Notes: generated from the sequence alone by a model not told the origin. Counted from the stretch's first letter, positions 8,463 through 27,211 are shown. The stretch is 27,241 nucleotides of DNA from a virus (IMGVR_UViG_3300026382_000007); one strand, 5' to 3'. Made by a program: numbers and translations.

Positions 8463-8717
8463 ATGGCATACGAAACAAGAGGCTCAACAGCTTTTAAAAA
8501 AGTTCAAGAGTTCAAAAGAGAAAATAAGGTCACGGAACATTCGATGATGCAGTTGATCTTACTATACTGTGAAAAGAAAGAGTTAGATCCTATTGAATTC
8601 GGTGAAGAACTGAAGAGGGACAAAAACTTCCGTGAGATGTTCAAAGCTGATTTGATGCACCACAATGAAGCGAAATTCATTGACACTGAAAAGCAAGCAG
8701 TGAGTGAGTGGGAATAA
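8463..8717 (+). CDS. gp33: Probable gp33-like late transcription coactivator
   Basis: 84 aa with SMMQLILLYCEKKELDP pattern resembling gp33 homologues; directly upstream of the gp59-like gene as in T4. Confidence 0.6.
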   Translation: MAYETRGSTAFKKVQEFKRENKVTEHSMMQLILLYCEKKELDPIEFGEELKRDKNFREMFKADLMHHNEAKFIDTEKQAVSEWE

Positions 8718-8734
8718 AATAAAAAGGTAAAAAT

Positions 8735-9301
8735 ATGCTACATTATAATCACCAATATGACATTAGTAACGGGATATTTCTTACATTTGATTCTCAGCTA
8801 CAAACAAGATTGCTTCACTCTAGACACGGAGCCTCTGTTCGTGAAAAGGTCAAACCATCATTCCCACATACGAAATACGAGACTATGACTAAAGAAAACT
8901 TCGTCATGACATGTCTATACATTATGTATGACTCGGCTCCGAGTTCGTACCGTGGGATGATCACTGAACTTCACGAAGTTGACCAAAAGCTCGTGAACGA
9001 TTTTAAATATAAGATACTGAATTACAACGACTACATGGGTAGAGATATCAAATTCCTCAAAGAAGAATATGGGAATGCTACATATCAACAAGTTTTCAGG
9101 TCATTGGTTGACAAAAAAGTTGAGTTTTTTACCGTTTGGTTCTTTATAATGTTCAATCCGAACATTAATCGCGACACGATACGAAAATCAAGAAGTTTGG
9201 CTCACTTACTCCGTAAGATTGAGTCATTAATGAAGTTTCTGACATTTAGACAAGAGTCAGTAGAACGAATTGGGGTTCTTTTTAAAGAGCTCGAACTATA
9301 A
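8735..9301 (+). CDS. gp59: Probable gp59-like helicase loader
   Basis: 188 aa, helical and basic; VFRSLVDKKVEFFTVWFF resembles the gp59 C-domain; synteny after the gp33-like gene. Confidence 0.5.
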   Translation: MLHYNHQYDISNGIFLTFDSQLQTRLLHSRHGASVREKVKPSFPHTKYETMTKENFVMTCLYIMYDSAPSSYRGMITELHEVDQKLVNDFKYKILNYNDYMGRDIKFLKEEYGNATYQQVFRSLVDKKVEFFTVWFFIMFNPNINRDTIRKSRSLAHLLRKIESLMKFLTFRQESVERIGVLFKELEL

Positions 9302-9310
9302 GGATAATTT

Positions 9311-10255
9311 ATGAATAAGAATATGGACCATACGATTTGGGCTGAGAGATATAGACCTACTACTTTAGAAGACTTGGTCTTCCCTGAAAAACTCCGTACA
9401 AAGGTTCAGGAATGGATCAATACTGGTGAAATCCCACATATTGGTATATTCGGAAGCATTCCTGGTACAGGAAAGTCAAGCTTACTTTCGGTGTTGATTG
9501 ACACATTACACACTGACACTTGTTGGATTAATGGTTCAAAAAACAACGGTATTGACACAATCCGTGGTGAAATTAGTGGATTTGCTCAAAACATTGCCGT
9601 AACTGGTAACATCAAACTTGTTTGTATTGACGAAGCTGATTATCTTACAGTTCCGGCTCAAGCGACTCTTAGATCTGACCTTGAGTTATATGCTAAGAAT
9701 ACTCGTTTTGCATTTACTGGAAACTTGCCTGAAAAGATCATCCCTCCATTGATGCAAAGACTTCAGGTGTTTGACCTTGATAAGATTTATCAAGAGAACA
9801 AAAAAGAACTTGGTGGTCAAATCTTTCAAAGACTGATCAATATCCTGAATGAGGAAGAAGTTCAGCATAAGGCAAAAGATGTTATGGCGGTCGTTAAGAA
9901 CTTCTATCCGTCTACTCGTGCGATGCTCATGTTCATGGAACAAAATACGGTTGATTCTGTACTTGATGTTGCTGATCTAGCGAAAGCTGATACAGTATTT
10001 GACACACTTATTGAAGCTATGAAAGCCAGAAAGTTTAAAGATGTTAGAACTGCTGTGACTGAACTTATGATTCCGGCTGACTTCTATACTTGGATGTGGA
10101 AAAACATTGATATCTTTGAAATGCCGTCCCAGCCTCAAGTCATTATGTTACTCGCTGAATTCCAAGATAAATCAATGAGAGCAAGCAATAAGCAAATCCC
10201 ACTTATCGCAATGTTGGTAAATATCATACAAGACCCTGATGTCAAATTCGTATAA
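9311..10255 (+). CDS. gp44: Clamp loader AAA+ subunit (T4 gp44/RFC-like)
   Basis: WAERYRP, Walker A PGTGKS, Walker B IDEAD, AQATLR, IIPPLMQRL. Confidence 0.95.
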   Translation: MNKNMDHTIWAERYRPTTLEDLVFPEKLRTKVQEWINTGEIPHIGIFGSIPGTGKSSLLSVLIDTLHTDTCWINGSKNNGIDTIRGEISGFAQNIAVTGNIKLVCIDEADYLTVPAQATLRSDLELYAKNTRFAFTGNLPEKIIPPLMQRLQVFDLDKIYQENKKELGGQIFQRLINILNEEEVQHKAKDVMAVVKNFYPSTRAMLMFMEQNTVDSVLDVADLAKADTVFDTLIEAMKARKFKDVRTAVTELMIPADFYTWMWKNIDIFEMPSQPQVIMLLAEFQDKSMRASNKQIPLIAMLVNIIQDPDVKFV

Positions 10256-10604
10256 ACGATTCATCCAGAGGGTCGGTGAGGAAGGGATTCTCACTGCTGC
10301 TCGGTTTGGGAAGGCGGTTAAAGTCATTGACATAAGGGTGAATGGTGCTGTCAAAAAGCCACTTACCATTTTATTCAACGAAAATCACTTACAAGTTGAA
10401 GATACTCACATTATATTCGAAAGTCATGAAGCTGAGGTTCTTTTCTTACAAGATCTATACTTTGTTCTAGAAGAGTATAGTGAAATTCCCACAAAATCTC
10501 GTATAACCAACGGTCAGAAAGAAGTCACCATCGACCAGCTACTTGCTGAAGCTCGTAAAGATATTCAAAAAACATCACAAGGAGACATTGATGGCGAAAA
10601 ATAG
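10239..10604 (+). CDS. Hypothetical protein
   Basis: 121 aa ORF overlapping both neighbours by a few codons. Confidence 0.65.
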   Translation: MSNSYKRFIQRVGEEGILTAARFGKAVKVIDIRVNGAVKKPLTILFNENHLQVEDTHIIFESHEAEVLFLQDLYFVLEEYSEIPTKSRITNGQKEVTIDQLLAEARKDIQKTSQGDIDGEK

Positions 10605-11508
10605 TATGATTGACAGATTGTCAAAAAACAAAGCACTCAAAGAGAGTGTATTCACTAAGAATCAAGATGCTGAAATTGATTTCATCAACACGGGAGCACT
10701 GGTGCTTAATGTGTTATTCTCTGGCCGTTTACAAGGCGGAATTCCTGTTGGGAAGATCAGTTCAATTGCTGCTCCTTCAAGCTTAGGAAAGTCATTTGTT
10801 GGTATGAAAATTGCCAAAAACGCACAGAAAAAGGGTAAAGACTGGATTGTCATTTACATGGACACGGAAATGGCATTTGATTTTGATTTTGCTGATTCAA
10901 TTGGGATTGATCTTGATAGATTGCTGGTTATTCAAAATAACCACATTGAAGAAGTTCAAAAACAAATCATGGCAGTTACCGCTGAGTTCTCAAAAGAAGA
11001 ACGAAAAAAGGTTCTGATTGTTGTAGATTCATGGGGCGGTCTAGTTACCTCAAAAACTGTAGACGATGCCAAAACTGGTAAAGATGTTACGGATATGACT
11101 GTTGCTAAGAAAAAGAATACATTATCAAAACTAATGACTTCTTTGGGTGTTACTATTTTTGTTGTTAATCAAGTTTATGATTGTCAAGTTGCTGGTACTA
11201 TGGTAAAAACTGACTCCGGTGAGAAAGCAATTGAGGTGTTGAAAGAGGGAGACAAAGTTTTAACGACTGATGGTTTTCAAGATGTCTTAGAAACAGTTGA
11301 ACACGAGGATGCTCATATTTTTGAAATTGAGTTGGAAGATGGTTCAACGATAAAATGTACTGAGGGTCATAAGTTCATTATTAGAAATACATTGACTGAT
11401 TCTTTGGAATGGATCCCTGCAGGTGCTCTGTCCGAAAATATGGAAATTCTATGTGAAAGTGATTTAGAAGAGATAAAATCTAAAGAACTCGCCGAATATA
11501 CCTTGTAA
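10591..11508 (+). CDS. uvsX: UvsX/RecA recombinase N-terminal part fused to split intein N-half (IntN)
   Basis: GGAG RBS and ATG 10591; INTGALVLN, Walker A APSSLGKS, DTE, VDSWGGL, VNQVYD, then intein block A (CQVAGTMV) and block B (CTEGHKF); TAA at 11506-11508. Confidence 0.92.
   Translation: MAKNSMIDRLSKNKALKESVFTKNQDAEIDFINTGALVLNVLFSGRLQGGIPVGKISSIAAPSSLGKSFVGMKIAKNAQKKGKDWIVIYMDTEMAFDFDFADSIGIDLDRLLVIQNNHIEEVQKQIMAVTAEFSKEERKKVLIVVDSWGGLVTSKTVDDAKTGKDVTDMTVAKKKNTLSKLMTSLGVTIFVVNQVYDCQVAGTMVKTDSGEKAIEVLKEGDKVLTTDGFQDVLETVEHEDAHIFEIELEDGSTIKCTEGHKFIIRNTLTDSLEWIPAGALSENMEILCESDLEEIKSKELAEYTL
11182..11505 (+). mobile_element. Split intein N-fragment (108 aa)
   Basis: Starts with Cys1; I..LK.GDKVLT, FEIELEDGSTIKCTEGHKF, W..A..L HINT motifs; ends in an acidic tail and stop. 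Confidence 0.9.
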
Positions 11509-11975
11509 ATTTCATTATCATCATCTACGAAGGGGAAAACATATGATGAAATCTACGGTGATGATGAGTTCATTAGAAACAAGAAAATTGCTATGAGTGA
11601 AAAACAGAAAGGTGTTAAAAAGACACAAGAAGTTATTCAGCGAATGGTAAATAATCATTGGTCATTGAGGATGAAAAATACTTGGTCTTCGTATAAGAAA
11701 GGTTCCAAGCTCTCTGATGAAACTATTCGAAAAATATCGGATGGGACAAAGTTGTTTTGGGACAATGATGATGAACTTAAAAAGAAGTTTTCGGAAAGAA
11801 ACAAGGGCTCGAAAAATCCAAATTTTGGGAAAAAGCACACTGATGAAGCTAAGAAAAAATGTCAGAAGCTTCAAAGGTATTGGTAAAATGTCCTCACTGT
11901 GGGACAGAAACAACAAGAGGTCCGGCAAAAAGATGGCACTTCGAAAATTGTAAAAGGAAATGTGATGAAAATTAA
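11509..11975 (+). pseudogene. Degenerate homing-endonuclease remnant (NUMOD3 repeats plus CPHC Zn finger), frameshifted, no catalytic domain
   Basis: KGKTYDEIYG, KLSDETIRKIS, KNPNFGKKHTDEAKKK; one extra A in the run at 11854-11859 continues as MSEASKVLVKCPHCGTETTRGPAKRWHFENCK, stop 11973-11975. Confidence 0.75.
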
Positions 11976-12069
11976 AAAAATAAAACAACTCAAAGACAGG
12001 GAAAATGTATATGATATAAGAACTGAAAGTCATAACTACATTATGACTAATGGTGTGGTATCACATAAC
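11965..12069 (+). mobile_element. Split intein C-fragment (35 aa)
   Basis: Block F VYDI..ESHNY, block G NGVVSHN, +1 Thr; basic N-terminus. Confidence 0.92.
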
Positions 12070-12552
12070 ACGATGGACCAATATAACCCATTAGCAATTG
12101 CAGGTGGTCGTGGTTTATACTTTGCTTGTTCAAGCATTGTACTTGGTTCTTCAAAATCAAGACATAAGGCTACACAATCAGATACTGAAGTTCTGGGAGC
12201 ATTGATCTTAGCAACTACTAAAAAGTCACGGTTCTGTAAAGAACTCACGAAACTCAGATATCTAATCAAGTATGAGGGCGGAATTCATCCTTACTACGGG
12301 CTTATGGAAGATGCACTAGAGGGCGGTTATATTGACAAGCCATCTATGGGCTACTATTCACGACCTTGTGTAACTGGTGATAAAAAGTGGCGAGAAAGAG
12401 AGGTATGGGACAATGCTAAAGAGTTCTGGACACCGATCTTAACTGACACCGATTTCGCTTGGTACATCGAGAAAAAGTACACATTTATGCATTCACAGCT
12501 AGATGATGAAGACTTTGACATCGATATGGCTAAATTACCAAAGTCTGAGTAA
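11965..12552 (+). CDS. uvsX: Split intein C-half (IntC) fused to UvsX/RecA C-terminal part
   Basis: AAAGGA RBS and ATG 11965; MKIKKIK...VYDIRTESHNYIMTNGVVSHN/T, then MDQYNPLAIAGGRGLYFACS, KKSRF, GGIHPYYGL typical of UvsX. Confidence 0.92.
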   Translation: MKIKKIKQLKDRENVYDIRTESHNYIMTNGVVSHNTMDQYNPLAIAGGRGLYFACSSIVLGSSKSRHKATQSDTEVLGALILATTKKSRFCKELTKLRYLIKYEGGIHPYYGLMEDALEGGYIDKPSMGYYSRPCVTGDKKWREREVWDNAKEFWTPILTDTDFAWYIEKKYTFMHSQLDDEDFDIDMAKLPKSE

Positions 12553-12555
12553 CTT

Positions 12556-12587
12556 TAAGCAAGCTCTAAGCTTGTTTTAGGTATAAT
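12556..12587 (+). promoter_or_regulatory. Repeated phage promoter, copy 4
   Basis: TAAGC(12556)-N6-TAAGC(12567)-N10-TATAAT(12582). Confidence 0.85.
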
Positions 12588-12617
12588 ATAGTATATCAAA
12601 AGTAAAAAGGCACTAAG

Positions 12618-12821
12618 GTGACTGAAAACAAATTTAACAAAATGTTACAATCACTGGGCTTCATCACCCAGGAGTTAGAAGCGGATGGAATGGAAGTTGA
12701 TGATTCAATTGTTTATGAAATTGCTGCTAATGTGATGAGAGAATACTCCGGTGTTGAAAAATACCTTTTGGATAAGTTTGGTGTCAGTGATGCACAGTGC
12801 TGGATTGCAGATAGAATTTAA
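12618..12821 (+). CDS. Hypothetical acidic protein
   Basis: 67 aa, GTG start after promoter and AAAGG. Confidence 0.7.
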   Translation: MTENKFNKMLQSLGFITQELEADGMEVDDSIVYEIAANVMREYSGVEKYLLDKFGVSDAQCWIADRI

Positions 12822-12840
12822 TTAAACGCAAGGAGTCAAT

Positions 12841-13218
12841 ATGACTAAAGATTTATCAAGAGTAGAAGCAAAACTGGATCTAATTTTCGGAATGTTCAGT
12901 AACCAACTAATGAGTGCACAAGCAATTGAGGCATTTCAAGCTACTCAGGACAAAGAAGACGATCAGTCTAAAGAGATCAATGCGAAAGCTGAAAGTGCTT
13001 TTAAACATCACAACAAAAATATGATGGACTCAGTTGACTATTACATCACACTATTCGGTGTCGATGCAAATGCGAAACTTGTTGATCTGTTAAAAGATGC
13101 TGGATATGGTGCTAAAAATGAGGCTCCAACTGAATCTGATGTTGCTAATGAGCCTGGGCTTGAAGTAGCTAACGATGTTAAGGCATCTGGCTCACATAAA
13201 TCAGAAACGGTTGAATAA
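12841..13218 (+). CDS. Hypothetical protein
   Basis: 125 aa, AAGGAG RBS. Confidence 0.75.
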   Translation: MTKDLSRVEAKLDLIFGMFSNQLMSAQAIEAFQATQDKEDDQSKEINAKAESAFKHHNKNMMDSVDYYITLFGVDANAKLVDLLKDAGYGAKNEAPTESDVANEPGLEVANDVKASGSHKSETVE

Positions 13219-13685
13219 TGACTGAACTTGATGAATGGGGAATTGAGGTTTATAATGAGCCTATAATCGAAGATTATGTTCCTGAAAAGAAAAGGGGGAA
13301 GTCTGTTTTTGACATTATGATGTCAGCTTTTAACAAAAAGTTCAAACCAACACAAGTTGAAAAAGAATCTATCCCTGAATTCTTGTTTCATCAAATTCTA
13401 TCTAACGACCCACAAACGGTGCAACTTGCACTGATGTTCACGACTCATCAAATTCCTGTTGCTAAGCAATGGGATATGGTCAATGAGTTACTTGGAAAGT
13501 GTTATATAGCTTATCCCAAGAAAACGAAAGTTGACACTGATGATTTGAATATCATCAGTGACTTTTATAATTGTTCACTCCGTGTGGCTGAACAATACTG
13601 TGGTCTTTTAACTACAGTCCAAATCAACGATATAATCGAGCGATCACAAACTGGTCACTTGAAAACTAAAAAAGGCAAGAAATGA
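13218..13685 (+). CDS. gp62: Clamp loader small subunit (T4 gp62-like)
   Basis: ISDFYNCSLRVAEQYCGLLT..QINDI resembles the gp62 C-terminal pattern; gp44 is in the window. Confidence 0.7.
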   Translation: MTELDEWGIEVYNEPIIEDYVPEKKRGKSVFDIMMSAFNKKFKPTQVEKESIPEFLFHQILSNDPQTVQLALMFTTHQIPVAKQWDMVNELLGKCYIAYPKKTKVDTDDLNIISDFYNCSLRVAEQYCGLLTTVQINDIIERSQTGHLKTKKGKK

Positions 13686-14656
13686 ATGAGTATATAAATT
13701 TATCACACAATGACATGGATGGGGCTGGTTGTAATATCGTCCTAAGATCTAGATATCCGGATATGAAAACGATCCACTCTAGCTACAATGATATCATTGA
13801 GAACCTTGAACTGATAGATGAAAATATGGACCACCGTGTTAAGGCAATGTTCATCACTGACTTGAACTTCGATGTACCATCATTTATTCAGCTTGCAAAA
13901 GTTATTTCACGGAATCCTGGTGTGAAATTCGTTTATATCGACCACCACCCTTATGAGGGTGCAGTTGGTGAGATCTTTGAAAAGATCAAAAAACTTCCAA
14001 ACTTCATCGTTGTACATGAAATTGGCAAATCAGCTACTAAATTATGTTATGAGACTATTAAGTCAGATGATGTAGAACTTGGTAAACTGGTTGATTATAT
14101 CAACGCATTTGATATTTGGCTCGAAACTCAAGATCCTAAGAACTTCAAAGTTGGTTGGTTTCTAAATACAATCTTCTGGGAACTTAAAATGTCAGGGTTT
14201 AAGTCAAATCTCATTAAAAATGACTACAAGATTCCTAAGTTTTTCAAGACTATGTATGCTGATCAGGTTGAAGATAAAAATAAGTACATTGAAAAGATGA
14301 AAGGGAACGGTTTACTGATTGAAGATGAAGAAAACTCAGTGTTGATCGCATTCAGTGATAAGTACAAATCATGGTTCCAAAATGACTTTCCTGATTATGT
14401 TGTACACATTCTTCCTTATGTGAGTAAGAATAACATCTCAGTCAGAATCTCAAATACCCCCGAAGTAACTTGGGCAAAAGAGATGAAAGAAGAGATGGTT
14501 GCATTCATTCAGTCTTATCCTTACACGATGAGCTGTGGTGGTCATGAACACGCATTCGGTTCAGCTATTGAACCAGATGCTCCTAAAGAAGATATCTTTG
14601 CTCTAATTGAGGGCTTATCTGAAATTGCTGGTACATATTTACGAAAACACCAGTAA
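13682..14656 (+). CDS. DHH family phosphoesterase
   Basis: SHNDMDGAGC, ITDL, IDHH, GGH motifs. Confidence 0.85.
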   Translation: MNEYINLSHNDMDGAGCNIVLRSRYPDMKTIHSSYNDIIENLELIDENMDHRVKAMFITDLNFDVPSFIQLAKVISRNPGVKFVYIDHHPYEGAVGEIFEKIKKLPNFIVVHEIGKSATKLCYETIKSDDVELGKLVDYINAFDIWLETQDPKNFKVGWFLNTIFWELKMSGFKSNLIKNDYKIPKFFKTMYADQVEDKNKYIEKMKGNGLLIEDEENSVLIAFSDKYKSWFQNDFPDYVVHILPYVSKNNISVRISNTPEVTWAKEMKEEMVAFIQSYPYTMSCGGHEHAFGSAIEPDAPKEDIFALIEGLSEIAGTYLRKHQ

Positions 14657-14658
14657 TT

Positions 14659-14690
14659 TAAGCTTATTCTAAGCTGATGTACGACATAAT
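14659..14690 (+). promoter_or_regulatory. Repeated phage promoter, copy 5 (CATAAT variant), upstream of the helicase
   Basis: TAAGC(14659)-N6-TAAGC(14670)-N10-CATAAT(14685). Confidence 0.75.
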
Positions 14691-14715
14691 ATAAAATATA
14701 AACAAAGGCTTATGA

Positions 14716-16092: not shown

Positions 16093-16100
16093 GAGGAATT

Positions 16101-16364: not shown

Positions 16365-16366
16365 CT

Positions 16367-16810: not shown

Positions 16811-18325
16811 ATGGCAAAACAATATGAAATGTCTTGGAGAAGTGGTACTGACTACTTCTGTAGAACAAGAGATACTGAAACAAATGAAGTCAGTTTTGAA
16901 AAGATAGACCCTGAATGGGAGTTTTATGAAAGATCTAACGGTGGTGAGTTTTCATCACTACTGGACAAATCAGTTCAACTACAACCTCGTATTTTCAATG
17001 ATACAAAATCTCAAAAAGAGTACACTGGTATGATGGACACTTTGGGTCGCGAAGTATTTGGTGGACAAAGACCTGAATACCATCACATTCGTAAAAACTA
17101 TTGGAACAATGGTCTTGTAAGTGAAATGAGAATCTGGTTCTTCGATATTGAAGTAATTAAAGCTGGTGATTATGCATTCCCTGATGCCCAAAAGGCTGAA
17201 AAGCCAGTTACACAAATTCAGATACTAGATTCTTACACTGATAAGATTATCATCATTAGTACGGATAATATGAAAGAGCCTGAGAAGTTCAAGAAATGGG
17301 GAGACCAACTGGTTTTCAAATATGTTGAATCTGAAAAAGCTCTTTTTAATATGTTCTTCAAATTACTTGAGGGGCTGAAGCCTACTGTGCTCACCGCATG
17401 GGGTGGTGACAACTTTGACTTTCCATACTTAACACACCGTGCCATGAAATTAGATGGTGTGAATTATCGTCGTCTTAGCCCTATTAATAAGGTCAGTCAG
17501 ATCCGTTCAATGGGTACTGATAAGAACTATAAATGGGAGGGATTGTACTTAATTGATATGATGGAAGCCTATAAGAAGTTCACATTTACACCGCAAACTT
17601 CGTACAGTCTTGATAACATTGCTAAAGAAGAACTTGGTCTCGGTGAGGGAAAAGTGAACTATGGTGAATTCGATAACATTATTGATTTTCATGATAATGA
17701 TATTGATAAGTTCCTTGAGTATTCTATCATGGATGTTGTAATTCTTAAAAAGCTTGAAGATAAAATCAAGCTTGTCGCTCTTATGCAAATCCTGTCAGTA
17801 ATGATGGGATGTAATATGGAAGACTCGATGGGGACGGTTAATCCTTGGACTCAATACCTGACAAATCTCGGTTATGAGAAACAACTGGTTATGCCGTACA
17901 ATAAACACGGTTCACTGGATAAGACAATTATCGGTGGATATGTCCGTGACCCGAAAAAAGGTAAACATGAATGGTTGGCTTCAATCGATGTCAACTCAAT
18001 GTATCCTCTATTAGGAATGCGTGCTTTCAATATGAGCCCCGAAACTTATATCGAAGAATACAAAATGCCAGCTGATCTTTTAGCTCTGAGAAACAGACTT
18101 CATACTCACGAAGATGAGAATGTTTATCTTGATGAAAGTCTACTTGAAGAGATTAAAGAAATGTGTCACAAATATGATGTGGCTTATGGTATGAATGCTT
18201 TCTTTATGAGAGATGAGGAAGGAATTATCCCTGAAAGGGTTGCTGACATTTACTCAACTCGTAAAGAAGCCAAACGAAAAATGCTTATGTATAAAGCATT
18301 CAAAGCTCGACTCAAGGTGACATAA
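16811..18325 (+). CDS. gp43: Family B DNA polymerase N-terminal half (gp43A: exonuclease, motif A, first fingers helix)
   Basis: ExoI FFDIEV, ExoII FDFPY, SYSLDNIA, ExoIII YSIMDV, GGYV, motif A DVNSMYP, GIIP..V..IY..RK..K, then stop. Confidence 0.95.
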   Translation: MAKQYEMSWRSGTDYFCRTRDTETNEVSFEKIDPEWEFYERSNGGEFSSLLDKSVQLQPRIFNDTKSQKEYTGMMDTLGREVFGGQRPEYHHIRKNYWNNGLVSEMRIWFFDIEVIKAGDYAFPDAQKAEKPVTQIQILDSYTDKIIIISTDNMKEPEKFKKWGDQLVFKYVESEKALFNMFFKLLEGLKPTVLTAWGGDNFDFPYLTHRAMKLDGVNYRRLSPINKVSQIRSMGTDKNYKWEGLYLIDMMEAYKKFTFTPQTSYSLDNIAKEELGLGEGKVNYGEFDNIIDFHDNDIDKFLEYSIMDVVILKKLEDKIKLVALMQILSVMMGCNMEDSMGTVNPWTQYLTNLGYEKQLVMPYNKHGSLDKTIIGGYVRDPKKGKHEWLASIDVNSMYPLLGMRAFNMSPETYIEEYKMPADLLALRNRLHTHEDENVYLDESLLEEIKEMCHKYDVAYGMNAFFMRDEEGIIPERVADIYSTRKEAKRKMLMYKAFKARLKVT

Positions 18326-19445: not shown

Positions 19446-19448
19446 AGT

Positions 19449-19487
19449 ATTCAATAACAAATTACCATTCAATAACAAACTACCATT
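19449..19487 (+). repeat. 18-bp tandem duplication in the 5' leader of the polymerase C-half
   Basis: ATTCAATAACAAATTACC / ATTCAATAACAAACTACC / ATT. Confidence 0.85.
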
Positions 19488-19501
19488 TAGGAGGTAAAGA
19501 T

Positions 19502-20713
19502 TTGAAACTTTCCATAGAAGAGGTTTTTGCTAAGATTGATTCAGGGGAAATGACCATAGATGTCATCAATAACTCGGATTGGTCTCATATAGAAGATGTC
19601 AATTTTGATGCACTTGATTCAAAAATTGCATACTTTGATACCCTACAAATGGCACTGAAAATTGCGATGAACTCCTTGTATGGAGCACTTGCAAATGTTC
19701 ACTTTCCATTATTCAATCGTGACATTGCTGCGAGCATTACTGGAAACGGTCGCATCTTTATTCAAGGGCTTGCAACTTACATTAACGGAAAGCTACAACA
19801 AGCACTTAATTCAAAGGCGAACTTCGTAGTTTACGGTGATACCGATTCAGTTTACTTCACTCTACAGGAATTAGTTGATAAGATTTCAACTAAAGATCCG
19901 AGTCTAGACACTGCTGGACTATTGGATAAGATTTTAAGCTTCGATAAAAAGCTTCTGGACCCATGGGTCCAGGAGTATATTGATAAATATGCTGATGACT
20001 TTAACGCATTCAATAAAGATCCTATTGGGGCAAAACTTGAAAAAATTGCTGATAAGGGTATTTTCATTGCTAAAAAGAAATACGCACTGAGAGCAGTTTG
20101 GGATGAGGGTTCATTCCTCGTTGAAAATCCTAAAATGGCTGTAACTGGGCTTGAAATCGTAAGATCTTCAACACCTATGTTTTGTCGTAAAGAGCTAAAA
20201 AAGGTCATTGATATTATCATGGACCATGACGAGCGATCTGTAGTTGACTTTATCAAAACTGCTGAAGAGGGCTGGTACAAGGCTTCAATTAATGACCTGA
20301 GTCGTGTAAGTGGTATCGGAAGCCTGAGTTATGATGGTGTTCCTGGATCACTTTTCAAAATTGATGATAAGGGTGATTTTGAACTTAATAAGAACGGTCG
20401 TAAACTATCCGCTCCTATGAATGTTCGTGCTGCGATGAACTATAATATGTTTATTGAAGAGCACAACATGAAAAGTTATCCGAAACTGACAACTGACGAC
20501 AAGATCAAATATGTGTTCCTGACTACACCAAACACTCTGGGTGATGATGTGGTTGGGTTTTTAGATGAGCAATTCATACACGATGCAAACCTACTAAGAT
20601 TTGTAGACAAGTCTCGTATGTGGGAAGGATTCTTCATGAGTCCGCTGAATATCATGCTTGATGCTGTTGAATATGATATTAATACTAATTTCGAGGTTGA
20701 TGAATGGTTGTAA
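19502..20713 (+). CDS. gp43: Family B DNA polymerase C-terminal half (gp43B: motifs B and C, thumb)
   Basis: AGGAGG RBS and TTG start; QMALKIAMNSLYG, SITGNGR, YGDTDSVY, KKKYA, GLEIVRSSTP. Confidence 0.95.
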   Translation: MKLSIEEVFAKIDSGEMTIDVINNSDWSHIEDVNFDALDSKIAYFDTLQMALKIAMNSLYGALANVHFPLFNRDIAASITGNGRIFIQGLATYINGKLQQALNSKANFVVYGDTDSVYFTLQELVDKISTKDPSLDTAGLLDKILSFDKKLLDPWVQEYIDKYADDFNAFNKDPIGAKLEKIADKGIFIAKKKYALRAVWDEGSFLVENPKMAVTGLEIVRSSTPMFCRKELKKVIDIIMDHDERSVVDFIKTAEEGWYKASINDLSRVSGIGSLSYDGVPGSLFKIDDKGDFELNKNGRKLSAPMNVRAAMNYNMFIEEHNMKSYPKLTTDDKIKYVFLTTPNTLGDDVVGFLDEQFIHDANLLRFVDKSRMWEGFFMSPLNIMLDAVEYDINTNFEVDEWL

Positions 20714-20886
20714 ATGATTACATGGACATAGTCCAACAAACGAGGTTATTTCTTCTGACGGTGCAAGCCAACGAGGAAACTGACGAAACTTTGGCTGAAA
20801 TGTCAATACTTCTGAAATCAGAAGTGACTACACATAATGTTGACCGCTTGGGTTATCTTGTAGAAAAAATTGAAAAGGAACACTAA
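20704..20886 (+). CDS. Hypothetical protein
   Basis: 60 aa, GAGG RBS, coupled to the next gene. Confidence 0.55.
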   Translation: MVVNDYMDIVQQTRLFLLTVQANEETDETLAEMSILLKSEVTTHNVDRLGYLVEKIEKEH

Positions 20887-22055
20887 TGCTAAATAGAAAT
20901 GCCGATGTACTTTACAATGATGTAGATCAAGAGAAAATCAATTCAGCGAATCCTAAAATGTTCGCTGATGTACTTGAATTTCACAACACCTACATATTTG
21001 AGAGACATGAAATTTACAAACGGAAGGAGATTCAAAACCTCCCACAAGATGAATGGACTGATGACGAAGTCTTTCAAAAATATAGGTTCACAAATGTTCG
21101 CCGTGAGATAGATCGTGAGTCGGTGTGGCTTATTAGAAACATCAGTGAAAATAACGACTTGACTTTAATTGAAAAGATCCTGAACTCTATCCTATTCAGA
21201 ACTTTCAATAAATCATCTACGATGGAGCTGTTTGGCTGCCCAATTAAAGATTTTGATGATATTGAAAGATATCGACCTATGTTTGAGCGATATGCTGAAC
21301 TGAATCCAAAATATGTATTCTTCACTCCCGCTTTTAACACAGGTGGTCTTAAAGCTGCAAATGCATTCCCGGATGCAAATGATATGTATGAATGTACATC
21401 ATCAGGGAAAGAAGTAAAAATTACCAACGGTGTAGATGAAAAGAGATTGACTCTTAGGCAAGCCAAAGATTATATTGCGATCAATGAAGATTGGTCTATT
21501 ATAGGACTTGAGCCGAATATGCCGATGCGCATGATGCACTTGGTTAGAAATGCATATCATAACAAACTCGCTGAAAAGATACTTGAATGTACTGACCAGC
21601 GAGAGGTGTTTGATGTACTTCAGGAAGTTAAGGGGTTCAGTAAATTCCTTGCTTATCAGGTTTTCGTTGACCTTACATACATCCCTGAATTCAAATTCAG
21701 TGAAAATGAGTTCACTGTTAGTGGACCTGGATGTCATAACGGACTTGAGTTTTTATTCTCAGACCGTGATGGGTTAAATGATGAAGAGTTACTATTCTGG
21801 CTTAGAAATAATCTACCAAACATATGGAAACGAGAAAACCTGAAATATGATCTTAATAAGTTATTTGACCATCTTCCTGAACACGACCGTTGCTTAAATG
21901 TGATGATGCTTGAAAATTCGTTCTGTGAACTTGGAAAGTATACAAAAGCTAGAAAGGGCATTGGTCGCCCACGAGTTACATACAAACCTACTGAAGATTC
22001 TAATGTTAGAGTTCAGATGGTGAACGAGTGTACACTTGATGAGTGGGCTGATTAA
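20886..22055 (+). CDS. aGPT-Pplase1 / 5-hmdU DNA kinase helical-domain family DNA base-modification enzyme
   Basis: ERH.IY, WTDDEVFQKYRFTNVRREIDR, LFRTFN, FLAYQVFVDL, GPG, ENSFCELGKY motifs. Confidence 0.82.
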   Translation: MLNRNADVLYNDVDQEKINSANPKMFADVLEFHNTYIFERHEIYKRKEIQNLPQDEWTDDEVFQKYRFTNVRREIDRESVWLIRNISENNDLTLIEKILNSILFRTFNKSSTMELFGCPIKDFDDIERYRPMFERYAELNPKYVFFTPAFNTGGLKAANAFPDANDMYECTSSGKEVKITNGVDEKRLTLRQAKDYIAINEDWSIIGLEPNMPMRMMHLVRNAYHNKLAEKILECTDQREVFDVLQEVKGFSKFLAYQVFVDLTYIPEFKFSENEFTVSGPGCHNGLEFLFSDRDGLNDEELLFWLRNNLPNIWKRENLKYDLNKLFDHLPEHDRCLNVMMLENSFCELGKYTKARKGIGRPRVTYKPTEDSNVRVQMVNECTLDEWAD

Positions 22056-22201
22056 TGGATAAGGAAGACTTCTTTGACATGTTAGTCGCATTCGTAAAAT
22101 CGGTGAAGAGTCAGGATTCAACTGACGATTCATTTAGTTGGCATCTGGGTCATTTAGATTTTCCAGAGGCTATGATAGAACAATTTAATGAAATGATTTA
22201 A
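22055..22201 (+). CDS. 48 aa hypothetical protein (not in the ORF track)
   Basis: TAATG coupling; MDKEDFFDMLVAFVKSVKSQDSTDDSFSWHLGHLDFPEAMIEQFNEMI. Confidence 0.55.
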   Translation: MDKEDFFDMLVAFVKSVKSQDSTDDSFSWHLGHLDFPEAMIEQFNEMI

Positions 22202-22206
22202 GGATA

Positions 22207-22905
22207 ATGAAAATGGCAAAATTTAACACAATGACACACGAAGATATGAGAGCACTTTTAACGGCACAAGCAAGTTTAAATGTAAAGTACACTGGCGAAG
22301 ATTGGGCTTCTAAAGTTCCCGTGGCTCACTTCATCGCAGCAATGCAAGCGGAATATGGTGAATTACTTGAAAGTTCTCCGAGAACTGGTGACCTTGTTGG
22401 TGATGATATGCCAAAGGGTTGGAAGTGGTGGAAGCCATATCTTGAAAATGATGTAAATAACAACAAAGTTGAGGGTGTTGACATGATTCACTTTGCAATG
22501 AGTGCTATGCTTGTTCGCCTTGGTGGTGTTGATGAAGTCATGAGTGAGATTGAGAAACTTGAGATTCAGCCTGATAAGCCAGAACAAGCTGACGAGTTCA
22601 TCGCAACTGCACTTATCGGTTCTGTAAGTGGTTTCACGATTAACATTCTTTTCACTGACTCACCTCAGGAAGTCACTGCTGCATATATTTACCTTGTTGA
22701 TGCTCTTTGTGACTATTGTTTAATGACACCTGAAGAGATGGTTGAGCTTTACAACAAGAAAAACAAACTGAACTCTGAGAGAATTGAGGGCGGTTACACT
22801 AAAGATGCTGACTCATACCAAAAGTATGATGAAGACGGAAACGAAGATAATACTAAGATGTTTGATTCAGTACCTGATACTGAATGTTCACCTTGTGAAT
22901 CTTAA
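22207..22905 (+). CDS. Dimeric (all-alpha) dUTPase family NTP pyrophosphatase
   Basis: Q..LN, AEYGELLES, WKWWK, EGVDMIHF, Y..KN.LN.ER...GY motifs. Confidence 0.85.
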   Translation: MKMAKFNTMTHEDMRALLTAQASLNVKYTGEDWASKVPVAHFIAAMQAEYGELLESSPRTGDLVGDDMPKGWKWWKPYLENDVNNNKVEGVDMIHFAMSAMLVRLGGVDEVMSEIEKLEIQPDKPEQADEFIATALIGSVSGFTINILFTDSPQEVTAAYIYLVDALCDYCLMTPEEMVELYNKKNKLNSERIEGGYTKDADSYQKYDEDGNEDNTKMFDSVPDTECSPCES

Positions 22906-22907
22906 AG

Positions 22908-23063
22908 AATTCTAGTAAATACTAGGATTTAGTTAATTATCATCTCTTTTGAGATGATAATCCAGTTAATTACCCGGAAATGGTTATTTAATATATTCCA
23001 TTAAGAATAGAATTTTTTTAGTATAGATAATATGGTTTTTTACTATTATCTATACTAAAAAAA
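22908..23063. repeat. AT-rich cluster of inverted repeats, including a perfect 20-bp stem
   Basis: AATTCTAGTA-AA-TACTAGGATT; ATTATCATCTC-TTTT-GAGATGATAAT; TTTTTTTAGTATAGATAATA(23013-23032)-N11-TATTATCTATACTAAAAAAA(23044-23063). Confidence 0.9.
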
Positions 23064-23091
23064 GCCTCTTTTATTTGTAAATATACAATTT

Positions 23092-23123
23092 TAAGCTTAC
23101 TCTAAGGAGTTTTTAGTTATAAT
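23092..23123 (+). promoter_or_regulatory. Repeated phage promoter, copy 10
   Basis: TAAGC(23092)-N6-TAAGG-N10-TATAAT(23118). Confidence 0.85.
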
Positions 23124-23147
23124 ATAGTATAACTAAAAAGGCTTAAC

Positions 23148-23441
23148 ATGAAAATGACACCAGAACACTTCAAAAAACTTTCTTCAATCGTAGATGACTT
23201 CATTGCGGTAAAAACTCCCGAACATTTAGTAAACTATTGTAATTCTATTGCTGGTGATGAAAGAATTCATGATCTTGAAACTCGTTTTGCATGGGACATC
23301 TACTGGGCAATCCCGAGAACTCTGCGAAGTGTTTGGTATGAAGATGCTAAACAGTATAACGATAACCATATGACAACTGCTCTTAAGAAAGCGGTAAAAA
23401 CTTCAATGGGTGAACTTTATCCATTCACGAAAAGGATATAA
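23148..23441 (+). CDS. Hypothetical protein
   Basis: 97 aa after promoter and AAAGG RBS. Confidence 0.8.
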   Translation: MKMTPEHFKKLSSIVDDFIAVKTPEHLVNYCNSIAGDERIHDLETRFAWDIYWAIPRTLRSVWYEDAKQYNDNHMTTALKKAVKTSMGELYPFTKRI

Positions 23442-23443
23442 TT

Positions 23444-23851
23444 ATGACAAGAGCAAAATGGCAAGCAACAAGAAGAAAGGGTGTATTTTATACACAGACA
23501 TTTAGCAGAGGGGCGGTTCTAGCATATTCTGAAATTGAATTCATTGATGAAATCCTTATATCAGAGCGAGACGGTGATTTATATGTGCACTTTGACATCA
23601 ACTTCAAGTCAGGAGAGAAGAAGCAGCAGAAATATACCATCGAGCCTGAAATGAAAACTGTTTCAGTTTCAAGATTGTTCCGCTCAAATAAAGATGTTCA
23701 GAAGAAAATGGGCTTCCGTGACTATATTGACCTCTTATCTACTGAAGAAGCTGAAGAAAAATGTGCAGCTTATAAAGCAGCAAAATCAGACCATGCGAAG
23801 CTGACAGCAAGATTTAAGAAATATTGTAAACTATCTGCTAAATTAAGTTAG
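23444..23851 (+). CDS. Hypothetical protein
   Basis: 135 aa, AAGGA RBS. Confidence 0.7.
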   Translation: MTRAKWQATRRKGVFYTQTFSRGAVLAYSEIEFIDEILISERDGDLYVHFDINFKSGEKKQQKYTIEPEMKTVSVSRLFRSNKDVQKKMGFRDYIDLLSTEEAEEKCAAYKAAKSDHAKLTARFKKYCKLSAKLS

Positions 23852-23875
23852 TTTTAAGTAAATACACGGTATAAT
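23844..23875 (+). promoter_or_regulatory. Repeated phage promoter, copy 11
   Basis: TAAGT(23844)-N6-TAAGT(23855)-N10-TATAAT(23870). Confidence 0.83.
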
Positions 23876-23905
23876 ATAGTATATCAAAAGTTAAAAGGAA
23901 ATATT

Positions 23906-24337
23906 ATGTTAGATGTAGCAATAGCAATCACTTCAGAGGCATTCAGAGGCAAGTTCGACAAAGGTGGAAAGCCTTACATCCTTCACTGCCTTCGTGTCAT
24001 GAACGGTGTTATACACTTGGGAGAGGATCATGCATGTGTAGCTATAATGCACGATTTAATCGAAGACACAAAATACACTGCCCAGGATCTTTATGATCTA
24101 GGGTTCAACTCGGATGTTGTGAACAATGTCGTAGCTATGACACACATCAAGGGTGTACCATATTCTGAATATGTTATGGAAATTAGTAAATTTGCAATCG
24201 CAACTGAGGTTAAGAAATCAGACCTCAAGGATAACAGTGATATCACTCGTTTAAAAGGAATCACTGAGAAAGATACTAAGCGAATGGAAAAATACCATAA
24301 AGCTTACACATTCCTTACAACTGGGTCTGGATACTAA
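23906..24337 (+). CDS. Stand-alone HD domain protein (RelA/SpoT hydrolase-like, small alarmone hydrolase type)
   Basis: DKGGKPYILH..RV, AIMHDLIEDT, VKKSDLKDN motifs. Confidence 0.88.
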   Translation: MLDVAIAITSEAFRGKFDKGGKPYILHCLRVMNGVIHLGEDHACVAIMHDLIEDTKYTAQDLYDLGFNSDVVNNVVAMTHIKGVPYSEYVMEISKFAIATEVKKSDLKDNSDITRLKGITEKDTKRMEKYHKAYTFLTTGSGY

Positions 24338-24348
24338 AAAGGCAAAAT

Positions 24349-24870
24349 ATGCAAATTAAAATGTTTAATTTCGATGGTGCTGATGATAAGCACTACAATG
24401 TGAGCAAAAGCTCGCATGTTTATGACAAACGGTTCACATCAGTGTTCCATAGGGATGGGTTCATCTCTGATACAAGCTATAAGAAGCTCATGAGGCTCGC
24501 AATTCTAGGTGGTTTAACATCATTTAGACATAAGGGTCCAGTGGTTCTGAGTTTTGAGGACTACAGAGGTAGGAATTTCAGTATTCTTATGATTCTTGAT
24601 AGATTTGACCTTGTTAATGACATTTTTATTATAACGGTTTTTAAGGGTTCAAAAGAGTTCCCATTCTACAAGCATTTCACCAAAGAGCATAACCGCCTAT
24701 GGATATCCCCTGATAAGTTTGTACTGCCGTACATGGACACGAAAACTCGTACGAAGCAGAAAATGGAACGAGAACGACACTTGGTTGATATCGGGTGCTG
24801 GGACGAAGATGTGAAATTCATAGACACGATGAATCGCGCAAAAGTAAAAAGGTCAAATGGTGGATATTAA
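24349..24870 (+). CDS. Hypothetical protein (possible RelE/BECR-like fold)
   Basis: 173 aa; N-terminal S.H...R and later IFIITVF strand, weak pattern only. Confidence 0.65.
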   Translation: MQIKMFNFDGADDKHYNVSKSSHVYDKRFTSVFHRDGFISDTSYKKLMRLAILGGLTSFRHKGPVVLSFEDYRGRNFSILMILDRFDLVNDIFIITVFKGSKEFPFYKHFTKEHNRLWISPDKFVLPYMDTKTRTKQKMERERHLVDIGCWDEDVKFIDTMNRAKVKRSNGGY

Positions 24871-25177
24871 ACAAAATGATATTTGGATGGTGAGTCTAGG
24901 TCACGATGCCGTTGGGCATGAGCAAAAAGGTGACCGCCCATTCGTGGTGATCAGTTCTGATGAATATAATAGGAACTCGGGAACTCCCGTAGGCTTCTTT
25001 CTCAGTACATCACTCAAAAAATCAACAAACCGCTTCGCTGTAGAGCTAGTTAGTGGTGTTGCTAACATTTCTCAAGTAAGAACACTTTCAAGTCTGAGAT
25101 TCAAGAAGTTCATGAACAATGCTGGTAAGGGCTCGACTCAAAGGCTTATGGAAAAATTCATAGCAGAAGTTCTATAA
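24857..25177 (+). CDS. PemK/MazF family endoribonuclease-like protein
   Basis: DIWMVSL, GHEQKGDRPFVVIS..YN, SQVRTLS..RF motifs. Confidence 0.9.
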   Translation: MVDIKQNDIWMVSLGHDAVGHEQKGDRPFVVISSDEYNRNSGTPVGFFLSTSLKKSTNRFAVELVSGVANISQVRTLSSLRFKKFMNNAGKGSTQRLMEKFIAEVL

Positions 25178-25179
25178 TT

Positions 25180-25211
25180 TAAGCTGTCCCTAAGATGTTT
25201 TTAGGTATAAT
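25180..25211 (+). promoter_or_regulatory. Repeated phage promoter, copy 12
   Basis: TAAGC(25180)-N6-TAAGA-N10-TATAAT(25206). Confidence 0.85.
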
Positions 25212-25235
25212 ATAGAATAACTAAAAAGGACTAAC

Positions 25236-25427
25236 ATGACAGATTTAATTATATTGGGTATCGAGTGTGAATGGGATATTGGTCAAGAGGGTGTTTGTTT
25301 CTTAGGATATGATGCTGTTCATAATTTCATTAGCCGAAACTGGGATGATGAAGAAATGGAAATGACTCAAGTCGAGGCTGAAGAGCAAGGGCTTCTTAGT
25401 ACATTTAACTTTGTAGTAGAGAAATAG
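25236..25427 (+). CDS. Small acidic hypothetical protein
   Basis: 63 aa after promoter and AAAGGA RBS. Confidence 0.75.
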   Translation: MTDLIILGIECEWDIGQEGVCFLGYDAVHNFISRNWDDEEMEMTQVEAEEQGLLSTFNFVVEK

Positions 25428-25434
25428 GAGAAAT

Positions 25435-25974
25435 ATGAAAAATAAAATTATAGGGGTCGATGTAGACCTGACTTTATGTGACTCTGTTACACCATGGCAA
25501 AATTGGTATCGTGATCTAACTGGACATGATATCAGTGAAGAAATTGATGAAGTGAATAATGATCTTCAAGACCTTATGAAGCGACACAACGATCCGCTAT
25601 CATTTTGGAAAAAACCTGATCTTTATGACAAGATTCCACCGTTTCAAGATGCAATTGATGTACTTCAGCGGTTAAGTGACAGAGGATACACAATCCTTTT
25701 TATAAGCACTTGTTTTCCTGAACATGAGAACTCAAAGAGAATGTTCCTTAAAAGACACTTCCCCATGGGTTCTGGTTTTATTTCAACATCTGACAAGCAG
25801 TACATTACAATGGACTGGTTCATTGATGACTATAAAAAGAACTTGAAAGCGGTTCAGGCTCACCAACCTGAGTGTAATTGTTTTCACATCAAAAGTGGAA
25901 TAAATAAGGCTGATGGATTCCCATTCGGTGATTGGGATGAATTTGAAAGTATGATATTAGCATCGGAGGATTAA
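25435..25974 (+). CDS. HAD family 5'(3')-deoxyribonucleotidase (NT5C-like)
   Basis: GVDVDLTL, FW...LY, K..FLKRHFP, DK, FIDD motifs. Confidence 0.85.
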   Translation: MKNKIIGVDVDLTLCDSVTPWQNWYRDLTGHDISEEIDEVNNDLQDLMKRHNDPLSFWKKPDLYDKIPPFQDAIDVLQRLSDRGYTILFISTCFPEHENSKRMFLKRHFPMGSGFISTSDKQYITMDWFIDDYKKNLKAVQAHQPECNCFHIKSGINKADGFPFGDWDEFESMILASED

Positions 25975-25975
25975 T

Positions 25976-27211
25976 ATGGATTTAAAGCGGTTCACAGAAC
26001 TGAATGGTGTTGAGGAGATCAGTGACCTTGAACAAGGTATGGATTTTCGTGACCCAAAAGTTAGGCGGGAGGTTTTCCTGAGATTCTATGGTTTTCACCT
26101 TGAGTACAAATCACATCCAGGTGCAGTTTACTATGTTATGCCATTTTTAGCTAACAAGTACAAATGGGACCTTGAAACGAAATTGTGGTTTGCATTCATT
26201 AATGGCGCAACACAGAATCCTCTAACATCTTGGGTTATTTTCAATCACTTCCCAACAGTTGATACTGATCCCGAAGTCATGGAAAAATGGCATAGGGAAT
26301 ATTGGAGAAACTTAGATTATGATATTGATCGTCGTTACCAAAAGGGGCACTTCGTTGAGATGTTCGAAAATTACAAGGAGTTGTTAAATGGTAAGACTCA
26401 AGTGGAGTATTTTGGTGATATTTGTAGTTCTGATGATCCATATAAAAACTTCGAGGCTTTATGGGATGTTGTTTATAATGACTTTTTCATGTATGGTCGC
26501 CTTTCTACATTTTCATATACTGAGTATCTGAAGATTTCAGGGCTGAACATTGATTGTAATACATTACTGATACATGATAAGTCAGGCTCCAAATCACATA
26601 GGAATGGTCTTTGTAAGGTGCTCGGTCGTGACGACATGGATGTTGATAAGCGAAACGAAATACTGATTCCTGGTCTTGAAAATGGTCACACCAAAGAGAT
26701 TATGAACTGGCTTGAAAAAGAGGGTGAACTTCTTATGAGCGAAGCCAAAGAGCGGTTCGCTGGTACTGACTTCATTGAAGATGTAAATTATTACACTTTA
26801 GAGAGCACACTTTGTTGTTACAAATCGTGGCATAGGGTCAATCGTCGTTATGCGAATGTCTATAATGATATGTTCCATGACCGCATCCTCAAGGCTGAAA
26901 CTCGTGATTGGTATGAGATTGACGGTATGAGCATCAACTTCAAAGATTTTTGGGAAGCCAGGGAGGCTTATCTCCCTGAAGAACTTCGACTTGAGATTCA
27001 GGAAAATGATCCCGGATTGGTTAAGGTTAAACAAAATTGGTATAGGCTGACAGGTCAAGTGCCTATGATGGAAATGTACGACCCTGTGTTCAAGAATGAC
27101 TTTCTTAAGAACTATGAAAACCGTGCAATTGAATGGTATGGCAAACCACCTACACCAAAGCCTAAAAAGGTTAAAATAGAATCACCAGATATAACGGAGG
27201 AGTGGCTATGA
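25976..27211 (+). CDS. aGPT-Pplase2 / amino acid:DNA transferase family DNA base-modification enzyme
   Basis: KLWFAFING, DIDRRYQK, GRLSTFSYTEYL, GSKSHRNGL, LESTLCCYK, RRY motifs. Confidence 0.8.
   Translation: MDLKRFTELNGVEEISDLEQGMDFRDPKVRREVFLRFYGFHLEYKSHPGAVYYVMPFLANKYKWDLETKLWFAFINGATQNPLTSWVIFNHFPTVDTDPEVMEKWHREYWRNLDYDIDRRYQKGHFVEMFENYKELLNGKTQVEYFGDICSSDDPYKNFEALWDVVYNDFFMYGRLSTFSYTEYLKISGLNIDCNTLLIHDKSGSKSHRNGLCKVLGRDDMDVDKRNEILIPGLENGHTKEIMNWLEKEGELLMSEAKERFAGTDFIEDVNYYTLESTLCCYKSWHRVNRRYANVYNDMFHDRILKAETRDWYEIDGMSINFKDFWEAREAYLPEELRLEIQENDPGLVKVKQNWYRLTGQVPMMEMYDPVFKNDFLKNYENRAIEWYGKPPTPKPKKVKIESPDITEEWL

Follow-up and report, generated by a model that had tools for sequence, protein, structure and literature searches.

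A tryptophan-based terminal peptide shared by the DNA polymerase and the thymidine-hypermodification enzymes of a T4-like virus suggests tethering to the sliding clamp

The subject of this analysis is a short peptide, centred on Glu-Trp, that ends both the DNA polymerase and several DNA-hypermodification enzymes of an uncultured virus. We analysed a stretch of 27,241 nucleotides (hereafter, the window), which corresponds to bases 75,444-102,684 of the 154,998-bp IMG/VR virus record IMGVR_UViG_3300026382_000007, a record with direct terminal repeats. Positions below are counted from the first letter of the window unless they are given as genome positions. The window has a G+C content of 37%, carries nearly all of its genes on the + strand and contains a T4-type replication module with an SbcC-like gp46, gp44, gp62, UvsX, a DnaB-type helicase and a family-B polymerase. 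The closest cultured polymerases, at only about 35% identity, come from phiKT1024-type Vibrio phages, from cyanophages and from Campylobacter phages; in a megablast search, 7 kb of window sequence found no match among cultured phages.

Five proteins of the window, all encoded on the + strand, bear the peptide at a terminus. The C-terminal half of the gp43-type, family-B DNA polymerase (19502-20713; PF00136, 6.6e-21; phrog_262, 6.7e-83) ends in FEVDEWL (20690-20710). The 5-hydroxymethyldeoxyuridine (5-hmdU) DNA kinase, or 5-HMUDK (20886-22055; PF18723, 1.3e-61), ends in CTLDEWAD (22029-22052), preceded by the linker ...YKPTEDSNVRVQMVNE. The amino-acid:DNA transferase of the aGPT-Pplase2/AADT type (25976-27211; phrog_3271, 5.9e-71) ends in DITEEWL (27188-27208) after a basic Pro/Lys linker, ...KPPTPKPKKVKIESP. 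An 84-residue protein (8463-8717) ends in AVSEWE (8697-8714). Finally, in the clamp-loader small subunit gp62 (13218-13685) the motif is N-terminal, MTELDEWG (13218-13241); the identity of this subunit, proposed from sequence alone, is supported by phrog_225 (E 4.6e-16), and its orthologues keep the motif. These five termini had been singled out by a sequence-only reading of the window, and each lies exactly where it was placed. That reading also held that no other open reading frame (ORF) of the window ends in this way, which is true of the complete ORFs and untrue of one that starts at 27202, leaves the window and ends in EIDEWLKESE.

The significance of such a short motif depends on its background frequency. 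We therefore called 232 crude ORFs over the whole 154,998-bp genome and counted the motif within the last 10 residues of each. The pattern [DEST]EW is terminal in eight ORFs where chance predicts 0.9 (Poisson P about 5e-6), and the narrower [DE]EW in six where chance predicts 0.48; for plain EW, the counts after shuffling within proteins averaged 1.7 and never exceeded 7, compared with the 8 observed. The terminal observation is confirmed and highly non-random, contrary to the refuting case, named in the sequence-only reading, of a motif no more frequent than chance. The carriers are the polymerase C-terminal half, RNase H/FEN (FEN, flap endonuclease), the 84-residue protein, 5-HMUDK, a second 5-hmdU DNA kinase (kinase 2), the transferase, a 351-residue enzyme of the pyridoxal phosphate (PLP) type and a 527-residue nucleotidyltransferase-like protein. 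Three of them extend the set beyond the window, namely RNase H/FEN (SSTDEWL), the PLP-type enzyme (EIDEWLKESE) and kinase 2 (ADLDEWF). The 527-residue protein was rejected as a client: its LMTEWEK end is probably a chance match, because its orthologues, including those of CP220 and phiKT1024, lack the tail.

Half of the carriers belong to one biochemical pathway. Sequence homology indicates that the phage encodes a thymidine-hypermodification pathway like that of phage ViI, an assignment made because 5-HMUDK, kinase 2, the transferase, the PLP enzyme and a thymidylate-synthase-like gene were all found. The match of 5-HMUDK to PF18723 scores 208.9 bits, as against a curated cut-off of 25, and covers residues 31-356. 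For the transferase, hmmscan against Pfam was blank even at E 10; its homologues (50-77% identity) carry precomputed PF18724 annotations, one of them being named 'amino acid-DNA transferase-like', and by this homology its family membership appears secure. The PLP-type enzyme (27202-27241 and on beyond the window to genome position 103700, + strand; phrog_3650, 5.6e-60) likewise left a direct Pfam scan blank. It is homologous to the PLP decarboxylase gene of the ViI type, and its counterpart in the Salmonella phage sal1 is annotated as threonine ammonia lyase; ViI gp226, the PLP decarboxylase of the published pathway, is of the same family. Kinase 2 comes next after the PLP enzyme (genome 103697-104410; PF18747, 3.7e-9, 36.6 bits as against a curated cut-off of 25), and shortly downstream lies the thymidylate-synthase-like gene, likely to encode a dUMP hydroxymethylase. 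Two tailed modification enzymes had been claimed at the outset; both stand, and the count was too low, since 5-HMUDK, kinase 2, the transferase and the PLP enzyme make four. The enzymes that work at the nucleotide level (the thymidylate-synthase-like hydroxymethylase, an NT5C nucleotidase and a MazG/dUTPase-like protein) have no tail, either here or in relatives, sal1 and Vibrio phage D532. In the same nucleotide-metabolism and hypermodification region, a MazF-like growth-inhibitor gene (24857-25177; phrog_1936, 1.9e-14) adjoins an HD phosphohydrolase.

The tails are conserved among relatives. The comparison covered four related IMG/VR contigs with orthologues at 40-55% identity; across orthologues of 40-77% identity the tails are kept and the linkers differ in both sequence and length. 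The polymerase tail EVDEWL has as its counterparts KLEEWF, ELDDWDF and IDINEW, the last from an unsplit polymerase of 903 residues. Among cultured relatives, the polymerase C-terminal half of phiKT1024 ends in SLDDW and the polymerase of CP220 in TLEEW, and the pattern [LI]-x-[DEN]-W describes the polymerase tails of six phages of the lineage. For the modification enzymes, TLDEWAD of 5-HMUDK is replaced by TDEWLKTH, SLENW or SLKEW, ITEEWL of the transferase by ISEWL or IIDDWA, DLDEWF of kinase 2 by DTEWF, IFDEW, LSEWQFTL or LSDWDF, and EIDEWLKESE of the PLP enzyme, in one relative, by EIENW. STDEWL of RNase H has the counterpart SLSEWV, AVSEWE of the 84-residue protein is matched by LNIEEWV and KKIDEVW, and at the N-terminus of gp62 the place of MTELDEWG is taken by MLADEWG or MLEDWG.

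Database homologues extend this picture. The 15 nearest of 120 transferase homologues all end in Phi-x-[DE]-W-[LI] (Phi, a hydrophobic residue) after basic linkers of variable length; in their alignment the Trp is invariant and the Glu nearly so, and linker lengths vary by up to about 15 residues. Similarly, the 25 nearest of 120 5-HMUDK homologues (at least 54% identity) all end in ..NEC[ST][LI][DE][DE]W. Homologues free of the tail include 5-HMUDK homologues of 331-339 residues on contigs of roughly 50 kb, a mycobacteriophage transferase and the majority of distant homologues. The kinases of the roughly 50-kb contigs and the mycobacteriophage transferase bear out the expectation that homologues from non-T4-like sources would lack the tail. 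A different kind of end, ..QSLF, ..QTLF, ..NSLF or ..KTLF, is seen in some other transferase and 5-HMUDK homologues (L057 10001-11152; P0042, P0054, P0057, P0075; P0213, P0218, P0224). Such ends resemble the bacterial beta-clamp motif QL[SD]LF and may represent tethering to a beta-type clamp; the L057 locus contains RecA, NAD ligase and ParB, and no gp45 was seen there.

If the tail is a docking peptide of the polymerase, the tails of the enzymes should track the polymerase tail from one lineage to another, and such tracking is indeed seen. Among the sequence data, this cross-lineage co-variation is the strongest evidence in favor of a docking function. The Kuttervirus sal1, a Salmonella phage of the ViI type, has a canonical gp45 (phrog_223, 3.9e-67). 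Its PolB ends in RVNLLSMMGKKG, its 5-HMUDK in SVNLLDRLKKPE, its transferase in SVNLMTLLKR, its kinase 2 in SVSLLGLLNKG and a protein of 69 residues in KINLLNMMRK, so that the polymerase and the modification enzymes have in common a tail of the form ..VNLLxMM. One extra regular-expression match in sal1, beneath the tail tube gene, was taken as chance. Vibrio phage D532 also has a gp45 (1e-52), and exactly five of its 217 ORFs end in [KR][KR]LW, where chance predicts 0.19. Besides the polymerase, they are 5-HMUDK, the transferase, a kinase-2-like 'guanylate kinase' and a protein of 99 residues near gp59. Thus sal1 and D532 repeat the pattern independently and with different peptides (P about 2e-6 and 4e-4).

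Two metagenomic T4-like phages with a PF09116 clamp (L056 and L058) point in the same direction, the comparison here being with T4 LDFLF and not with the polymerase tails of these phages themselves. In one of them a TET/JBP dioxygenase ends in ..GTLEAFF, the transferase in ..STLEAFL and an acetyltransferase in ..ENLECLL; in the other, the TET/JBP dioxygenase ends in ..ATLENFFA and the transferase in ..FGLENFLE. In both, the TET/JBP-type dioxygenase (L056 8589-10001, L058 6447-7715) directly adjoins the transferase, and this placement together with the tail suggests a tethered route from T to 5-hydroxymethyluracil (5-hmU) on DNA. Taken across all these lineages, sequence comparison establishes the presence of a polymerase-type terminal peptide on DNA-acting hypermodification enzymes.

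A peptide of this kind is shared by clamp clients of T4, and some counterparts of T4 clamp clients bear the Trp tail in this phage. RNase H/FEN had been predicted to carry it and does. The position differs from T4, in which RNase H contacts gp45 by its N-terminus (PMC3012046), whereas here the tail is C-terminal. The 84-residue protein lies directly upstream of an ORF (8735-9301, + strand) that resembles gp59; since in T4 gene 33 is followed by gene 59, this places the 84-residue protein in the syntenic slot of gp33. By its size, tail and position it is a candidate clamp-binding transcription co-activator. The gp59 assignment itself comes from an all-helical AlphaFold model (predicted local distance difference test score, pLDDT, 96.5), for which the top Foldseek match is T4 gp59 (1C1K, TMq 0.71, probability 1.00); the protein has no tail. 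This ORF, which lies beside gp44, was also tried as the clamp and rejected on account of that helical, gp59-like model. It belongs to phrog_12320, listed as 'unknown function', and the family could be annotated, since its member here is modelled with confidence as a helicase loader of the T4 gp59 kind.

The clamp of this phage proved to be divergent. The gp45 profiles phrog_223 and PF09116 gave no match in the whole genome, phmmer with T4 gp45 found no clamp, and ten acidic ORFs with lengths of 200-300 residues had no PHROG match. A tblastn comparison with the 'sliding clamp' genes of Campylobacter phages (26% identity, E 2e-6) points to an acidic protein of 228 residues (genome 118935-119621), encoded directly upstream of gp32 and 16 kb past the window. 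Its structural model has a pLDDT of 73.6. The top four Foldseek matches are 6DRT, 1CZD, 3U61_F and 1B77, that is, gp45 of T4 or RB69 (E 8e-9 to 1e-7), and the remaining matches are all PCNA or beta clamps. As judged from the model, this ORF is a divergent gp45-type sliding clamp with the two-domain clamp fold. A related-locus search with the clamp as query returned nothing.

Given these observations, we propose that the C-terminal Phi-x-[DE]-W-(Phi) peptide on its flexible, variable linker would be the docking peptide of this lineage for the gp45-type clamp, a variant of the T4 (S/T)LDFL(F/Y) epitope. Its ordinary clients would be the polymerase, RNase H/FEN, the protein in the gp33 slot and, through its N-terminus, gp62, and the polymerase-type peptide would have been acquired by four enzymes that act on 5-hmdU within DNA. 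Clamps loaded or left at the fork could then concentrate the modification enzymes on freshly replicated duplex, along which the clamp-held enzymes might slide, and thymidine hypermodification would thereby closely trail replication. The idea of a Trp-based clamp motif acquired by modification enzymes had been put forward in the sequence-only reading, and it draws strong, if indirect, support from the polymerase tails of six phages, from RNase H and gp62 and from the co-variation described above. That the receptor of the peptide is the sliding clamp we consider probable. We infer from the sequences that the peptide binds the clamp, and that this binding would couple modification to replication, with the enzymes acting on nascent DNA.

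A number of findings limit this interpretation or weigh against it. We modelled the final 30 residues of the transferase, using an alignment of 15 rows, in complex with the clamp, for which the alignment had 9 rows. The predicted complex scored 0.51, as against 0.02 for the best of three controls, which amounts to a verdict of 'weak support'; controls in which the clamp was swapped for an unrelated protein scored 0.00. Of 80 solved complexes, 58 reach the pass mark used, as do 2 of 110 mismatched pairs, and scores that pass at 0.60 or under comprise only 7 of the 80 solved complexes and both of the passing mismatches. At least 98% of the contacts recur between runs, with a partner pLDDT of at least 61. 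This pass may mirror likeness to known structures, because similar complexes have been solved: RB69 gp45 with a polymerase peptide (1B77) and T4 gp45 with the LDFLF peptide of ligase (6DRT). Among the proteins expected to carry the motif, gp55 (phrog_234, 4.3e-11), a defining clamp client of T4, does not fit neatly: it ends in NMDSFMYK, which has Phe instead of Trp and agrees with Phi-D-x-aromatic-Phi. In one relative gp55 ends in EQEWFKNLKKG, and in CP220 and phiKT1024 it has no obvious tail. The same expectation failed for ligase, in which [DE]W is absent from the entire protein; since T4 ligase binds via an internal loop (PMC6212786), the phage ligase could possess another clamp motif. The 84-residue protein, initially described as gp33-like, has the tail, but homology does not support that label: no match to gp33 was detected with phrog_254, a PHROG scan or hhalign against T4 gp33. 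The PLP enzyme is tailed here and in one relative, and tailless in sal1, D532 and the related contig G001. Finally, the one published precedent that we found for a DNA-modifying enzyme on the phage clamp, a link between T4 alpha-glucosyltransferase and gp45 (Sommer et al. 2004, as quoted in bioRxiv 10.64898/2025.12.06.692756 and NAR 2026 gkag531), could not be confirmed by recent work, pull-downs included, either in vitro or in vivo.

The weak complex prediction and the lack of the Trp motif in gp55 and ligase would also fit a genuine docking peptide with a hub other than the clamp, such as gp32, gp59, the clamp loader, the polymerase or the host RNA polymerase; T4 RNase H, for example, binds gp32 as well (PMC3012046). 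We regard another hub as unlikely. The polymerase tail lies where experiments have defined the gp45 epitope in T4/RB69 gp43, the motif is borne by the clamp-loader subunit gp62, the enzyme tails of other gp45-bearing lineages (TLEAFF, TLENFF) are close to the proven LDFLF of T4, and the prediction scored 0.00 once the clamp was replaced by an unrelated protein.

Could the tail serve an end that does not involve tethering to DNA, as a degron, a localization or packaging signal, or an element of translational coupling? Being short, terminal and placed after disordered linkers, it does resemble many degrons, and in two cases the start of a downstream gene overlaps the tail codons. Such a role is nevertheless improbable, given that the carriers are the polymerase, FEN, the clamp loader and DNA-acting enzymes and that nucleotide-level enzymes of the same operon go without the tail. 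The coupling variant, in which the Glu-Trp codons (GAATGG) merely house the ATG of an overlapping gene, was rejected: the carriers encode the Glu that precedes Trp by GAG in five of eight cases and by GAA in three, the overlap is mostly absent and the likelier downstream starts fall outside these codons. Because GAG and GAA alternate and overlapping downstream starts are absent from most carriers, the constraint lies on the peptide and not on the DNA. Moreover, tails with D-W or N-W, as well as those of ViI type and of D532, are incapable of encoding ATG. As for a compositional artefact of an AT-rich phage proteome, the motif core is only 2-3 residues long and both the 527-residue protein and the sal1 tail-tube match are probably fortuitous, yet the genome-wide excess, the retention of the tail across four related contigs and dozens of metagenomic homologues, and its repetition with other peptides in two cultured lineages effectively refute this explanation and leave it a negligible probability.

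The proposed clamp docking has a close parallel in T4 and RB69, where a gp45 epitope lies at the C-terminus of gp43 (PMC2988020, PMC6212786) and is shared with gp55 and gp33; T4 tails of this type are SLDFLFG (gp43), SLDFLYEAND and TLDFLL. In gp55, the epitope is a short conserved motif joined to a linker that diverges in sequence and varies in length (PMC2988020). The phage described here shares with them an acidic/hydrophobic peptide at the extreme C-terminus of the polymerase, a variable linker, the recurrence of the peptide on other clients and a clamp of the gp45 fold. It differs in having Trp within Phi-x-[DE]-W-Phi instead of LDFLF, in a clamp that has diverged beyond the reach of phrog_223 and PF09116, and in its clients, which include four thymidine-hypermodification enzymes that T4 lacks. 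The idea advanced for T4 alpha-glucosyltransferase is similar in that a DNA-modifying enzyme on the clamp would modify DNA as it is replicated. However, that enzyme ends in ..EQFDIITK, with no polymerase-like tail, whereas the enzymes considered here bear an explicit, co-varying copy of the polymerase tail. A more distant analogy is offered by the PCNA clients DNMT1 (6K3A) and FEN1, a modifying enzyme and a flap endonuclease that are recruited by a short clamp motif. Compared with PIP-box clients, the phage system differs in motif, clamp lineage and chemistry, multi-step hypermodification of 5-hmdU taking the place of methylation. As to the pathway itself, the phage resembles ViI and M6 (PMC5889632, PMC8989533) in having the same families (thymidylate-synthase-like hydroxymethylase, 5-HMUDK, kinase 2, aGPT-Pplase/AADT and PLP decarboxylase) working post-replicatively on 5-hmdU. 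The two papers on the thymidine pathway (Lee et al. 2018, PMC5889632; Lee et al. 2021, PMC8989533) make no mention of the clamp, the replisome or processivity, and we found no published description of polymerase-type tails on hypermodification enzymes, those of ViI-type phage included.

Thymidine hypermodification is thought to protect phage DNA against host nucleases. It takes place after replication and reaches up to half of the thymidines (PMC8989533). How the enzymes of the pathway reach fresh DNA quickly and act in sequence is a question that the pathway papers we consulted leave unaddressed. If our interpretation is correct, a clamp tether would offer a simple physical answer to enzyme targeting, parallel to DNMT1 and FEN1 on PCNA. 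This would also bear on the dispute over whether phage DNA-modifying enzymes ride gp45. The hypothesis lends itself to direct testing in phages of the ViI type, which can be cultivated and for which purified enzymes exist. A broader rule can be formulated as well: phages of the gp43/gp45 type would tether every enzyme that acts on thymidine in DNA (TET/JBP dioxygenase or 5-hmdU kinases, amino-acid:DNA transferase, and PLP decarboxylase or acetyltransferase) by means of a lineage-specific peptide copied from the polymerase. Under this rule the clamp would function as a moving assembly line for hypermodification. We give this generalization an even chance. On the practical side, the last 6-8 residues of the polymerase may provide a cheap key, genome by genome, to clamp clients, new DNA-modification enzymes among them, and matching of termini can likewise reveal which divergent motifs uncultured phages use for clamp binding.

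The remaining genes of the replication module have features of their own. The large subunit of the clamp loader, gp44 (9311-10255, + strand), has AAA and Gp44_lid domains and matches T4 gp44 (phmmer 1.2e-31). The N-terminal half of the DNA polymerase (16811-18325, + strand; PF03104, 1.6e-24; T4 gp43 phmmer 6e-32), which comprises the exonuclease and the start of the polymerase domain, has no tail and is separated from the C-terminal half (19502-20713) by about 1.2 kb with small ORFs. The polymerase is likewise split in the related contigs G001 and G002 and in phiKT1024, and is unsplit in G003 (903 residues) and CP220 (882 residues). The UvsX/RecA recombinase is also in two parts, an N-terminal part ending in a Hint/intein N-fragment (10543-11508) and a C-terminal recombinase part (11899-12552), with small ORFs between them, an arrangement that fits a split intein. 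Outside the window, gp32 (genome 119770-120840) has a conserved acidic C-terminus, ..DDDVLAMLDDL, with ..ILAMLGEL and ..ILALLNDL in relatives and ..DLDDLLNDL in T4; this acidic terminal motif is different from the Trp tail.

Lastly, the phiKT1024 genome (OM249648.1) shows two terminal peptides at once. Its proteins ending in an acidic residue or Asn followed by Trp number 17, as against 4.2 expected. Near its polymerase (144125-157222), about 10 small paralogous ORFs end in [YF]PE[LMN]F[IL] (for example DYPEMFI, HPELFI, APELFI and YPEEYL), which constitutes a second shared terminal peptide.

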